NCBI GenBank assembly: GCA_037308085.1
Contig: CP147779.1
Coordinates: 192,001 to 256,000, forward strand
DNA: 64,000 nucleotides
Source: Promethearchaeati archaeon SRVP18_Atabeyarchaeia-1
GTDB taxonomy: Archaea; Asgardarchaeota; Atabeyarchaeia; Atabeyarchaeales; Atabeyarchaeaceae
Reading direction: 5' to 3'
In this document: piece by piece, positions 40,354 through 47,968 of the stretch
How the letters are laid out: every line of letters begins with the position of its first letter
Position numbering within the stretch: the stretch's first letter is position 1
Made by a program: the position numbers and the translations under genes
The notes under the pieces: generated by a model
What the model saw: the letters and a program-made list of their open reading frames with translations, nothing else
What the model was told of the DNA's origin: nothing
Databases searched by the model: none

Positions 40354-42267
40354 GTGCAAAGCTTGATTTCGGAGTTGAAGAATGCTGTCAAATCCCTGCT
40401 AGAAAAAGCGATTTCGAAGGCTGGGATCTCTGTGGAGTTCCCATTGGAAGAGACGATTGAGAAACCCCCTGATCCCAAGCTAGGCGATTTCACCTCAACG
40501 GTCGCTCTCAGACTCGCCAAGCAGATAAGAATGAAGCCAATCGAAGTGGCCAGAAAGATCTACGAAGGCATCCAGATTCCGAGGTCAGGCGGAGTTTTTG
40601 AACGGATCGAGGTCAAACCGCCTGGATACATCAACTTCTTCGTGAAATATCCGAATCTGGCAAAAATGACGATAGAAAGAGTAATTGAGCAAGGAGACAA
40701 GTATGGGTGGAACGAATCTGGTCAGGGCAGAAAGGTTCTTGTTGAACACACCTCAATCAACCCAACGAAACCATTGCATATCGGGCACCTGAGGAACGCG
40801 GTGATAGGAGACATCATTTCCAGGATCTACTCCGCCTGCAGGTGGAAAGTCGAAGTCGAGAACCTGATCGACGACATGGGCAGGCAAGTCGCCGTTCTGG
40901 TTTGGGGTCTAAAGAACAACGTTCACCTAGAAGTTCCTAGAGAAAATGATATGAAGCTTGACTTGTGGTACGGGCTCGTATACTCCAAGGCTGACTCAAG
41001 ACTAGTCGCCGAACCAAGTCTTGAGAAAGAGATCGAAGAAATAATGCGCGAGATGCACGATGAGACAAGTGAGACGTCAAGATTCGCAAGGACAGTTTCA
41101 GAGAAGTGCGTCGAGTCAAATCTCGAGACAACCTCAAGGATGGGCGTCTTCTACGACCTCTTGGTTTGGGAGAGCGACATTGGTCAAGCCGATGTTTGGG
41201 ACGAAGCCTTCCAGAAGTTGAAGAAGAGCCCAGAGCACTTTGGGATCGAAACCGAAGGAGAGTACAAAGGCTGCTTCGTGGCCAAACTAGGTCACTTGGA
41301 GGAATTCAAGGACCTAAAGAGCAGCGACAAGGTCATAGTCAGGTCGAATGGCGTCCCAACCTACATCGCAAGTGACATAGCCTATCAGATGTGGAAATTC
41401 GGGCTATTAGATACGGACATGATGTACAGGTTACATCATGTGCAACCTAGCGGGAGAGCACTCTGGACTACTTCGCCAATTTTGGCAATCAAAGAACACG
41501 AGAAGTTTGCACGCGCAGACAGAGTCGTAAACGTAATAGGATACGAACAGAACTACCTGCAACAGATCATACGTTCATGCCTGAAGTTGCTGGGGCACGA
41601 GAGGGAATCCGACAACTCGATTCACTTATCATACAAGCATGTCGAAGTTGCCGGCGGACGATTCTCGGGAAGATCAGGTAACTGGTTTGGCTTCCACGCG
41701 GACGCCGTCGTGAATAGGACCATGATTCAAGCATATGAGCAGGCCTGCAAGAATTGCCCTGAACTCCCAGAATTAAAGAAGAGAGAGATTGCCGAAATTA
41801 TAGGCGTTGGAGCCGTTAGATACTGGCTGACGAAGTTTAAGCTTGACCAGACAATAATATTCGACTACGACAAGGTAACCGACTTCAACGGCGAAACTGG
41901 ACCATACATCCAGTATGCGGCCGTCAGGGCCAATAGTATTGTCCAGAAGGCAGGTGGAGAGAAGTCAATTGATCTTGGCAGGGTTAATTTTGAGATACTT
42001 AAAGGCGACACGGACATAGAACTTGTCAAGGAGATCATGGCCTTTCCCGATACCTTGGACGAGTGCGTCAGGAGCCACTCACCGAACACATTAGCAAGCT
42101 ACACGTACGGTTTAGCAGTGAAGTTCAACAAGTTCTATGAGAAGCGCCCAGTATTGACCGCCGGAGACGAAGAGAGGAGAGCACGGCTCGCGCTCGTGGC
42201 TGCCTCGAAGCAAACACTACTCAACGCCCTTAGTTTGCTTGGGATACAGGTTCCAGAGCAGATGTGA
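40354..42267 (+). CDS. argS: Arginine--tRNA ligase
   Basis: GYINF, VEHTSINPTKPLHIGHLRNA, RSNGVPTYIASDIAY, GETGPYIQYAAVRA, C-terminal PEQM. Confidence 0.98.
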   Translation: MQSLISELKNAVKSLLEKAISKAGISVEFPLEETIEKPPDPKLGDFTSTVALRLAKQIRMKPIEVARKIYEGIQIPRSGGVFERIEVKPPGYINFFVKYPNLAKMTIERVIEQGDKYGWNESGQGRKVLVEHTSINPTKPLHIGHLRNAVIGDIISRIYSACRWKVEVENLIDDMGRQVAVLVWGLKNNVHLEVPRENDMKLDLWYGLVYSKADSRLVAEPSLEKEIEEIMREMHDETSETSRFARTVSEKCVESNLETTSRMGVFYDLLVWESDIGQADVWDEAFQKLKKSPEHFGIETEGEYKGCFVAKLGHLEEFKDLKSSDKVIVRSNGVPTYIASDIAYQMWKFGLLDTDMMYRLHHVQPSGRALWTTSPILAIKEHEKFARADRVVNVIGYEQNYLQQIIRSCLKLLGHERESDNSIHLSYKHVEVAGGRFSGRSGNWFGFHADAVVNRTMIQAYEQACKNCPELPELKKREIAEIIGVGAVRYWLTKFKLDQTIIFDYDKVTDFNGETGPYIQYAAVRANSIVQKAGGEKSIDLGRVNFEILKGDTDIELVKEIMAFPDTLDECVRSHSPNTLASYTYGLAVKFNKFYEKRPVLTAGDEERRARLALVAASKQTLLNALSLLGIQVPEQM

Positions 42268-42278
42268 GAGAATGTTAT

Positions 42279-43571
42279 GGTTCTGTTACCTCTGCGGTTA
42301 ATAGCTGCTTGAGGTGACTTCTCCGCTTCTGCTCCCCGTCTTGTTTAAGGATCGGATCACAGCTACATGGGCGGAGCGATCCAACCTGAACCGCAGGCCT
42401 TCATCCTGGTTTTCCAACAGGTTTAAGCAGGCGTTTAGATGCCGATCTATCCTGCAACACTCTAGGATCTTTGCTTTCGGGTCTACCATGGCCCACCCAC
42501 ATACCGCGCAGACCCTGGAAGTGTTCCAAGGACTCACTTCAACGACTCTGCCTCCCTCCCAGAGAGCCTTGTACTCGATGTAAGTTTGTAGCCTCCTGAA
42601 GCTCCACGAGTTCAGCCTCCGCTTCATCTTCCTGGAGTACTTGCTTACCTTCTGAATTCTACCGTTGAAAATATTGACGCCTAAGACTTTCTTATTAATT
42701 GTCCTGCGGATATGTTTAAGGTCTTCGAGAATAATGCCTTGCTCTCTGGTTTTTGCTTGCTTCACTATGGCTGAGCTCACCTGGTGCAGAATTGTTTTGA
42801 CCTTGTTGTTCTGATTGGTGAACCAGTCTCTCTGTATCTTCTTCGCTACCCGTCTATCCTTCACGTACTTGGCTTGGACCCTTCGCACCCGCCCAAAGTA
42901 TCCGTGCCTAACCTCTGAAACCCTTGATAAGTCATGGCTTTCAAAGACCAATTCTCCGCTTTCATTCACGCCGCCTCCATCGATTGATCGCTCATTCGTG
43001 TCATACGCCACATAACTCTTCGGTTCGGTAGCTTCAACGGTCTTGGAGAAGACCACCGATACCATGCAAGTAGTCAAGGTTATTGAGCCCAACTTGAGCG
43101 TAGCATCCGATAGGAGCCGCGCTGCTCTCTTGTGCAGGGGACGTAGAAGTACTCTCTTGGCTTGATTGGGATTCTCAGGTTGCCGTCAACAACTTTGTAG
43201 GCTTGGTTTCCCAGTTTGGCCGTGAGCTTCGTGGCTCTCGGCACTCGAACATTCTGATGCCTTCTCTTCGCTTTCCGGTAGTTCTTCAAGATGGGGGTGG
43301 CAACCTCGATGGCGGAGAGGCTGTACCAGGTGTGGAGACCGAGACCATTTAGCTGGTGGTATGTCTCGCTCTGCAGTCTTAGCCTGCAGGTCACATTCTT
43401 CTCTAGACCGACGCGGATGCAGTGGTTGACCATGCTCCTGAAGGCTTCAAGGAGACTAAGAACACCGCTTCGAGGCTCGTATGATATCTGCACCCCGCCT
43501 TAACTGCCTGCATGGAGCTGAACAACCCAAAACTCTTATTTAAGCTCACCAACCGAAGAGGTAACTGAGCC
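42279..43571 (-). mobile_element. 1293-bp non-autonomous element with IS6-like 21-bp TIRs and an 8-bp TSD, carrying tnpB
   Basis: Inverted termini GGTTCTGTTACCTCTGCGGTT (42279-42299) and the reverse complement of 43551-43571, GGCTCAGTTACCTCTTCGGTT, match at 18/21. Flanks AATGTTAT / AATATTAT match at 7/8. Confidence 0.82.
42298..43513 (-). pseudogene. tnpB: TnpB RNA-guided endonuclease, frameshifted
   Basis: RuvC-I VAYDTNE, RuvC-II IILEDLK, SWSFRRLQTYIEYKA, TSRVCAVCG, DRHLNACLNL; frameshifts near 43495 and 43138. Confidence 0.88.
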
Positions 43572-43645
43572 AATATTATTAAGTGTTGAGCCTACTCCAC
43601 TAGGTACTGCGAATGAGCCTGCTTGCCGCATGCGTCTGGATGTGT

Positions 43646-43740
43646 GGGCCCGTGGCCTAGTCAGGATAGGGCGCCGGCCTTCGACCTTGTTCCTGGAAGA
43701 CAGCCGGGGGTCGTGGGTTCAAATCCCTCCGGGCCCGCCA
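43646..43740 (+). tRNA. tRNA-Arg(TCG) with a 17-nt canonical intron (43685-43701)
   Basis: Same body as tRNA-Arg(CCG); stem CCGGC/GCCGG; BHB helix CTTC/GAAG; encoded CCA. Confidence 0.95.
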
Positions 43741-46435: not shown

Positions 46436-47968
46436 TCAGCTTTGCTTGCCGCCACCGAGTACGTCATAGTAGGGGTGCGGTCTGTGAGGGAGTACACCAA
46501 GCGTCTTGTATACCTCATCGGCAACTGCAACTTGGCATGCTGCTACGCTCGGGAAGATCCTTGTGGCATTCTTGATCGGACCATACATGTTCATGTCGAC
46601 TCCGAAAATTGTGGGAAGAGTGTAATCGAAGCTGAACTCAATGTCTTTTCGTTCCAGTTGAATAGAGTGCAGATTATGTATGCCTATGGCTGTGGGAAAC
46701 CCAAGCCGGCTTTTTATAATCCATGCCTTTTCAAGCGCGCTCAACGCGCCTCCGCCTAGCCTTGGGACTCCTGGATCGATAATTGGCCTGTGCACGATTT
46801 CACCGAAGTACTTCAGAATTTGGGCTGCCTTCTTTATCGAATCTTCCGCCGACTCGGTATAGGATAAGCAGATAGCGTACTCTGCCCCTCCTATGTTCTT
46901 GAGAGCATTGTATTCCTCTCTGCTTGGAGCCATGAGAGAGTTGTAGATTACCCTTTTTTCGACTCCTATGTCTTTGGCGATTTTCAAGCCATGGACGCGT
47001 GTGTCCATGGAGCTGGAGTCGATGATAATCGGTGAATCAGTATGGTCGACGGTGAACAGTATGTATCTCTCAATAGCCTCGACAGTCTGTCCGACGATAT
47101 GAACTATCACAGGAATGCTATAGTGGATCGACAGTTCGTCCTGTCGGTATATGAAATCTGCAGCGGCTTTCTGGTCGAAACCCCCTTTTCTCGGTTCTGT
47201 GACGATCTTGTCCTTGGTGTAGAAGATCGTCCCCGCCATGGCTGTAGGATATTCCCCTCTCTGCCCTCCGATCTTTAGTCCGCACAGGTCGTAGACTTGG
47301 GGACTTACCTCAGAAAATGTGAACATTGATCCTAATGAACTTCTTGTCTTCTGCTTGCTTCCCTTGATCTTCTTAACATAGCGGCTGACTGCTTTCTCCC
47401 AGTCGTTCAGTCCCTTTGGCTCAGGGGGAAAGATCGGCTCCATCTTCAGGGAAATTGGGTCCGTTCTTGCAGATAACTCGTCAACTTTCATGCAGATCTT
47501 TTCAAGCGATGTCTCATTGATCATGTCGACGACTAAAACTACTTGCTGTCGGAATCGAGTAACGTATTTCGACGGCTCGTCTCCCCTGAAATAGGTGGGT
47601 AGAAGAGTGGGAATCGTGCCATTGCTGCCTATGACAACATGTTTCTCACTCAGACCGTTCGAATGAAGAGCAATCAACGTTTGTCCGGGTTCGTGACCTC
47701 TAACTCGTTCACCACAGACTAGCAGGTACATGATATGCGGATTAGATATGATATTCTGAACTATCTTTGCTATTCCCTCGTTCTCAGTCTCGCAGAATCC
47801 AGAGATGGCAACTTTTTCGCCTCTGGCTCCTACGATCTTCTTTGGCAAATCATAGGATCCACAAGTCATGACGGCAATCCTCGCATCTGGATTACCGAGG
47901 GAATAGTCGCCCGCCAGCGGTGGCCACTTTCCTTGCTTCTTGGAATGATGATCCTTATCGCTTTCCAT
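46436..47968 (-). CDS. MtrA-MtrH fusion (corrinoid protein plus pterin methyltransferase)
   Basis: MtrA: WPPLAGDY, ETENEGI...ISNPHI...CGERVRGHEPGQ with the His ligand. MtrH: IGGQRGEYPTAMAGTIFY, IIDSS, IYNS, GIHN, YGPI. Confidence 0.88.
   Translation of the reverse strand: MESDKDHHSKKQGKWPPLAGDYSLGNPDARIAVMTCGSYDLPKKIVGARGEKVAISGFCETENEGIAKIVQNIISNPHIMYLLVCGERVRGHEPGQTLIALHSNGLSEKHVVIGSNGTIPTLLPTYFRGDEPSKYVTRFRQQVVLVVDMINETSLEKICMKVDELSARTDPISLKMEPIFPPEPKGLNDWEKAVSRYVKKIKGSKQKTRSSLGSMFTFSEVSPQVYDLCGLKIGGQRGEYPTAMAGTIFYTKDKIVTEPRKGGFDQKAAADFIYRQDELSIHYSIPVIVHIVGQTVEAIERYILFTVDHTDSPIIIDSSSMDTRVHGLKIAKDIGVEKRVIYNSLMAPSREEYNALKNIGGAEYAICLSYTESAEDSIKKAAQILKYFGEIVHRPIIDPGVPRLGGGALSALEKAWIIKSRLGFPTAIGIHNLHSIQLERKDIEFSFDYTLPTIFGVDMNMYGPIKNATRIFPSVAACQVAVADEVYKTLGVLPHRPHPYYDVLGGGKQS

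Follow-up and report, generated by a model that had tools for sequence, protein, structure and literature searches.

TnpB between IS6-like terminal inverted repeats: a probable non-autonomous transposon in an Atabeyarchaeia genome

A 1,293-bp element between argS and the tRNA-Arg(TCG) gene of the archaeon SRVP18_Atabeyarchaeia-1 is probably a decayed, non-autonomous transposon whose sole cargo is a TnpB-omegaRNA module, and it is very likely mobilised in trans by an IS6-like SWIM/Zn-ribbon DDE transposase that resides on larger elements with the same ends. The element occupies positions 42279-43571 of the window, that is, of the whole 64,000-nucleotide stretch of DNA that was analysed (genome 234279-235571). 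Its features and neighbours are as follows (window positions, with the strand where there is one).

40354..42267, plus strand: argS, the left flank, outside the element
42259..42278, minus strand: guide of about 20 nt predicted from TnpB geometry, running from the target duplication into the 3' end of argS (antisense)
42271..42278: target duplication at the tnpB 3' end (AATGTTAT), single copy in the empty site of the congener G003; predicted first 8 nt of the guide
42279..42299: terminal inverted repeat (TIR) at the tnpB 3' end; in the omegaRNA it is predicted to supply the 3' strand of the terminal hairpin and the tail of the possible pseudoknot
42279..42398, minus strand: predicted omegaRNA scaffold core, overlapping the tnpB end, with covariation
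42282-42279, minus strand: possible omegaRNA pseudoknot, predicted
42318-42285, minus strand: predicted omegaRNA terminal hairpin, including the TIR
42376-42321, minus strand: predicted omegaRNA long stem
42398-42384, minus strand: predicted omegaRNA first hairpin
42298..43513, minus strand: tnpB pseudogene, about 408 codons in intact sisters
42441-42439, minus strand: His replacing the RuvC-III Asp of the tnpB pseudogene
42726-42724, minus strand: RuvC-II Glu of the tnpB pseudogene
43002-43000, minus strand: RuvC-I Asp of the tnpB pseudogene
43137..43140, minus strand: -1 frameshift in a C run, breaking the frame ahead of the RuvC domain
43493..43496, minus strand: +2 frameshift in a G run, a few codons past the ATG
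43551..43571: TIR at the tnpB 5' end
43572..43579: target duplication at the tnpB 5' end (AATATTAT)
43580..43583, minus strand: putative TAM, CTTA (family consensus YTTW); it lies beyond the duplication and is also present in the empty site of G003
43646..43740, plus strand: tRNA-Arg(TCG) gene with an anticodon-loop intron, the right flank, outside the element

The two TIRs, starting GGTTCTGT (42279-42299) and GGCTCAGT (43551-43571), agree at 18 of 21 positions, as an earlier note on this DNA had claimed, and the 8-mers outside them, AATGTTAT at 42271-42278 and AATATTAT at 43572-43579, agree at seven of eight. When 25 kb of the window (30-55 kb) was scanned for inverted repeats 1.0-1.6 kb apart, with at least 18/21 identity and a target duplication of at least 7/8, the ends of this element were the sole pair found; two shuffles of the sequence gave zero pairs at the same repeat and duplication thresholds. 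In G003, which belongs to the same genus, the argS-tRNA-Arg interval lacks the element and contains one AACGTTAT followed by TAAG. This single 8-mer, for which the earlier note had proposed to look in relatives, fixes both boundaries and the 8-bp duplication, and the duplication is therefore real. A chance origin of the repeats is ruled out by the shuffles, the sister copies and this empty site. The only protein family found inside the element was the TnpB TNB domain (PF07282, E-value = 1e-14), and no transposase gene was found there, again as claimed. The two frameshifts reported earlier are also present in the assembled sequence, both in homopolymer runs; as assembled, this copy cannot produce full-length TnpB. 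The Rfam scan yielded tRNA only, and a scan for bacterial promoters and terminators, the models of which do not cover archaeal promoters, was empty. The tRNA-Arg(TCG) gene (43646-43740) was not typed by ARAGORN and is conserved in G003 and in G002, a genome of the same family. Elsewhere in the window (46436-47968, minus strand) there is a 510-aa ORF with motifs that presumably resemble those of an MtrA-MtrH methyltransferase fusion.

The search for sister copies suggested in the earlier note gave 11 copies in the genome with common ends, here called family A. Nine of the 11 are flanked by target duplications (6-8 of 8 bases), and the two without a duplication both carry internal deletions. The near-full-length copies are 77-86% identical to one another; since no pair exceeds 86% identity, recent movement is unsupported. 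Five sister copies retain an intact tnpB frame, with intact sisters at genome 326164-327455 and 1251822-1253116, and the substitution rates among the family A copies (mean dN 0.12, dS 0.66, ratio 0.19) show that the TnpB is under purifying selection. The target duplications have diverged at about 10% of sites, and against a dS of 0.66 this would mean that most of the divergence is older than insertion; we infer that purifying selection acted on TnpB during the spread of the lineage.

A second TIR-bounded TnpB (family B) is about 35% identical and has the canonical D-E-D triad and related ends. The genome also contains seven MITEs (257-269 bp) with related TIRs, an omegaRNA-like hairpin and a TATA-like motif inside one end; they are probably guide-RNA-only elements, and several have TTG or TTA just outside the 8-bp duplication.

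G000:C1 899438, 1254037, 1697571 and 1808115: family B copies, with TTG outside the duplication
G000:C1 537694, 673143, 868840, 1260433, 1526452, 2198749 and 2205592: MITEs

Other Asgard genomes, the class to which a Bathyarchaeota genome belongs, and metagenomes also yielded relatives with TIRs and 8-bp duplications; the viral contigs searched contained TnpB-free elements only. One family A relative (L067:4001-5359) lies directly upstream of an MCM gene; its right TIR is a short remnant and its left TIR was not found, and it is possibly immobilised. The genome has 46 TnpB domain hits, and in a tree made by a quick method the TIR-bounded TnpBs are separate from the other TnpBs of the genome (SH-aLRT 92); because the sequences were sampled by similarity, the tree permits a single capture of TnpB without showing one. 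Two further multicopy TnpB groups have altered RuvC-III motifs and conserved right ends (e.g. 556653, 1345146, 1177012 and 1996464; G000:C1). TIRs and duplications were looked for in these two groups of the same genome and none were seen, and one copy adjoins an IS607 serine TnpA.

The predicted omegaRNA scaffold comprises the last 120 nt of the element and overlaps the 3' end of tnpB. In 14 sequences, from which the structure was also drawn by hand, 92% of cells are paired, compared with 34-45% in slid controls. Fifteen of the 31 pairs have compensatory changes on both sides, a number that exceeds both shuffled and slid controls, and the z-scores of single-sequence folding are modest. TIR positions 7-14 form the 3' strand of the terminal hairpin, seven of whose eight pairs covary with an internal segment as the TIR changes. 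This covariation agrees with the earlier proposal that the omegaRNA ends in the TIR, and the TIR thus appears to double as transposase end and omegaRNA scaffold. The last four bases are able to pair with the first hairpin's loop, and since the possible pseudoknot so formed is nearly invariant, covariation is unable to support it. For the guide predicted at the argS locus, we could not find a second match preceded by TTW elsewhere in the genome.

A search of the genome with PF13610 gave two matches. The first is in a 4,419-bp cargo element (genome 614149-618567) with 21-bp TIRs identical to those of family A and a 7/8 duplication, and its transposase is 5'-truncated, the N-terminal third being missing. 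The second is an intact protein of 383 aa with a SWIM domain, a Zn ribbon and the triad D210-D269-E308, inside a 6,554-bp element (549276-555829) with related ends that match the family A TIR at 17 of 21 positions. This protein scores above the PF13610 cut-off and its best NCBIfam match is IS6; since its score with NF033587 (120.7 bits) is below the cut-off of 125 and it has the extra SWIM and Zn domains, we call it IS6-like. The expectation of an IS6 transposase with the same ends was thus borne out by an IS6-like one, on ends identical or nearly identical to those of family A. The first 9 bp of the element TIR are the IS6/IS26 consensus (PMC6807381), and the TIR, which starts with GG and has G at position 7, is close to the 14-bp IS6/IS26 consensus, present in full in the relative L018; with no transposase inside, these ends support the earlier view of a non-autonomous TnpB element with IS6-type ends. 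In other archaea, ends of this type and duplications of 8-9 bp were found on 48 transposase elements. None of these 48 carries tnpB and none of 35 tnpB elements carries this transposase, which rules out the two in one element among the 83, all fetched by similarity and from related genomes that are not fully independent. As to cargo, of the two transposase elements L003:1150-5568 and L004:1077-7630, one carries a restriction-modification methyltransferase-like gene (995 aa) and the other an aspartyl-protease-like gene and other small genes. At five loci (L086, L165, L169, L172 and L181), IS6-like cargo elements stand in tandem at one site with an identical 8-bp duplication between them, which suggests a strong target-site preference.

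The earlier note had the TAM set by the AT-rich duplicated site. However, the target duplications are 55-63% AT and vary in sequence, so a TAM equal to the duplication is ruled out; the conserved motif lies just outside, and the duplication would therefore begin the guide. On the tnpB 5' side, TT occupies the second and third positions outside the duplication in 34 of 43 TnpB elements, versus 6 of 42 on the 3' side (p = 1e-9). The TnpB-free IS6-like elements have TT on 16 of 36 and 16 of 37 sides, or 44% of free sides against a background of 8%; as TTN occurs on either side in these elements, the preference of the transposase supplies part of the bias.

The flanking TTN could even be purely such a preference for sites beside archaeal core promoters, with TnpB having no strict TAM there and the two ends told apart either by the transposase itself or because transcription into the host gene is selected against. 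Of the 71 free sides of TnpB-free elements (L081-L086 and L148-L187), 26 do have TTA at positions +7 to +9, counted outward from the duplication (background 1.1%), in a CAANNTTTATA-like, BRE-TATA-like flank profile. At the argS-tRNA locus the duplication and TAAG likewise make up a TATA-like box upstream of tRNA-Arg, which is conserved in the empty site and would agree with this explanation, and the CTTA there predates the insertion. Pure preference is nevertheless unlikely in light of three other results. The TT of TnpB-free elements has no polarity relative to the transposase gene. An in-register TATA is present in only 8 of 34 TnpB elements versus 19 of 30 TnpB-free ones (p = 0.002), and the TnpB elements retain the TT without it. 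Finally, the base adjoining the duplication is G in 0 of 17 family A and 9 of 9 family B elements, and is still G in the family B copies of G003 with A-type TIRs; the third motif base, by these counts, follows the TnpB lineage and not the TIR type. In a crude count, genes start downstream of TATA-like boxes in 13 of 26 versus 16 of 41 cases. The duplication regenerates the putative TATA-like box upstream of tRNA-Arg, for which we infer a promoter role. The simplest reading is of two layers: the transposase would prefer TTN and promoter-like sites, and a TnpB-specific TAM would filter the insertions, and their orientation, that persist.

Under this two-layer reading, the IS6-like transposase would insert the element beside a TTN that is often BRE-TATA-like, making the 8-bp duplication. 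It is likely that the omegaRNA ends at the TIR, with the duplication and flank as guide, and that TnpB reads the TAM outside the other duplication. The RNA would run through the TIR into the duplication and the flank, and TnpB would read a TAM just beyond the opposite duplication, so that an empty allele (TAM, one 8-mer, flank) would be a full target and an occupied allele would offer 8 matching bases only. We lean slightly towards the further proposal that TnpB cuts empty alleles and that the insertion is kept or spread when gene conversion repairs the cut from the occupied allele; the five sisters with intact frames could use the RNA of the argS-locus copy. Transposition in the IS6 family is replicative, a mechanism established for bacterial members only (PMC7986276), and thus leaves no excised donor, which restorative homing needs. 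Should it be replicative here too, TnpB would find its targets in uninvaded alleles or in sites that a deletion between the duplications has restored. Further points against this explanation are the TT enrichment of TnpB-free elements, which makes the motif partly a transposase preference; the truncated transposase of the element with identical TIRs, the intact one lying between ends that match the family A TIR at 17/21; and the two family A copies without duplications. The most extended version of the proposal is doubtful. It holds that, in an archaeal lineage not yet described, a promoter-seeking IS6-like transposase captured TnpB on a single occasion, that part of the BRE/TATA is read as the TAM and the duplication serves as the guide seed, that homing fixes polarity in an element that perhaps never excises, and that the His site of family A alters or forgoes cutting.

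Whether the TnpB cuts depends on its active site. The protein was assigned by PF07282 and TIGR01766, and the modelled structure of an intact sister (pLDDT 84) matches those of AsCas12f, OsCas12f and TnpB. Among 54 homologs, the RuvC-I Asp is kept in 53 and the RuvC-II Glu in all 54, and the RuvC-III Asp is replaced by His in 44 and by Gln in nine, so that the canonical D-E-D triad is absent; the DR motif preceding the RuvC-III position is variable. With this Asp replaced in 53 of 54 homologs, cleavage by family A TnpB is not assured. The protein might instead bind where its guide directs it and have little or no nuclease activity; it would then protect or regulate the insertion by binding the empty allele or the promoter, and the replaced Asp, the variable DR motif and the insertions near promoter-like motifs fit such a role. 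We regard it as quite improbable, given that the other two catalytic residues are conserved and that the related family B retains D-E-D in the same layout. Moreover, the main text of Altae-Tran et al. 2023 (PMC10691335) describes a RuvC-III rearrangement (RIIIr) that the family A TnpB resembles, and in its RIIIr-4 branch, with a conserved RuvC-III Asp-to-His change, such conserved changes are argued to imply retained activity.

That a Y1 or serine TnpA moves the element, which would then be of the ordinary IS1341/IS605/IS607 kind with repeats due to chance or a nested insertion, is hardly credible: the genome does encode TnpA of the Y1 and IS607 types, and ordinary TnpB elements are numerous in it, but all copies end at the TIRs, most have duplications, the empty site has one 8-mer, the TIR forms part of the predicted omegaRNA, and the TnpA genes, the partners that would have spoken against the earlier note, are beside other TnpB clades or away from the family A copies, which rules them out.

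As the earlier note had remarked, DDE-associated TnpBs are already known from surveys. The main text of Altae-Tran et al. 2023 (PMC10691335) describes six branches, DDE-1 to DDE-6, together with solo TnpBs that share ends with transposase-bearing elements and are presumed to move in trans. The present element is like them, as there described, in having TnpB between inverted terminal repeats, its 3' end near the transposon end, and in having ends in common with a DDE-transposase element. In that text and in a review of 2026, IS630, ISL2 and IS1031 are the partners named for DDE-associated TnpBs. By the same main text, the IS6-like SWIM/Zn-ribbon DDE partner, never in cis with tnpB in 83 elements, distinguishes our family from DDE-1 to DDE-6; the TAM outside the duplication and the covariation of a TIR within the scaffold are likewise absent from it. 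Overlap with one published DDE branch is possible, the comparison resting on that main text. In the literature searched for TnpB with IS6, IS240, Asgard or Bathyarchaeia we could not find a description, as far as the main text of PMC10691335 goes for that paper, and neither TnpB nor IS6 is mentioned in the paper on mobile elements of Atabeyarchaeia.

Like IS6/IS26, the element has a TIR that begins GGTTCTGTT and an 8-bp duplication (PMC6807381, PMC7986276), its partner transposase matches PF13610 and NF033587, and MITEs exist. Unlike IS6/IS26, it encodes no transposase, and the partner is a protein of 383 aa with SWIM and Zn-ribbon domains, below the NF033587 cut-off (120.7 vs 125), on cargo elements of 2-7 kb with TIRs of about 21 bp and a target bias. 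Harmer and Hall have argued for keeping archaeal members out of IS6/IS26 proper (PMC6807381, PMC7986276). With IS200/IS605 elements (ISDra2 and the IS1341-type solo tnpB) the family shares the TnpB fold, a scaffold overlapping the 3' end of the gene, a probable pseudoknot by the guide and a T-rich motif 5' of the target. However, IS200/IS605 elements have no TIRs or duplications and their TAM abuts the left end, whereas here eight duplicated bases separate the motif from the left end. Fanzor1 and Fanzor2 are also RNA-guided TnpB homologs on DDE elements with TIRs and a duplication; in these the TAM includes the 5' duplication and the scaffold contains the 3' one (PMC13565253), which differs from the present case, where the duplication appears to start the guide.

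In short, TnpB on DDE elements and solo TIR-bounded TnpBs were already known, as far as the main text of PMC10691335 shows, and the IS6-like partner and the target layout were not found in the literature searched. The argS-locus copy is a pseudogene and is significant only as a member of its family, which adds an IS6-like partner to the known DDE transposons that carry TnpB and offers a testable account of how TAM and guide could function at a target that insertion duplicates. If transposition here is replicative like that of bacterial IS6, restoring excised donors cannot explain the retention of TnpB, and the family would lend itself naturally to testing non-restorative homing. It also provides Cas12f-like proteins of compact size (about 410 aa), with TTW or TTG as predicted TAMs and a D-E-H active site. 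No paper on insertion against a BRE-TATA-like motif was found in the literature searched; such insertion could be a finding in its own right, and the bias of the transposase for these motifs may represent an archaeal safe-harbour strategy.
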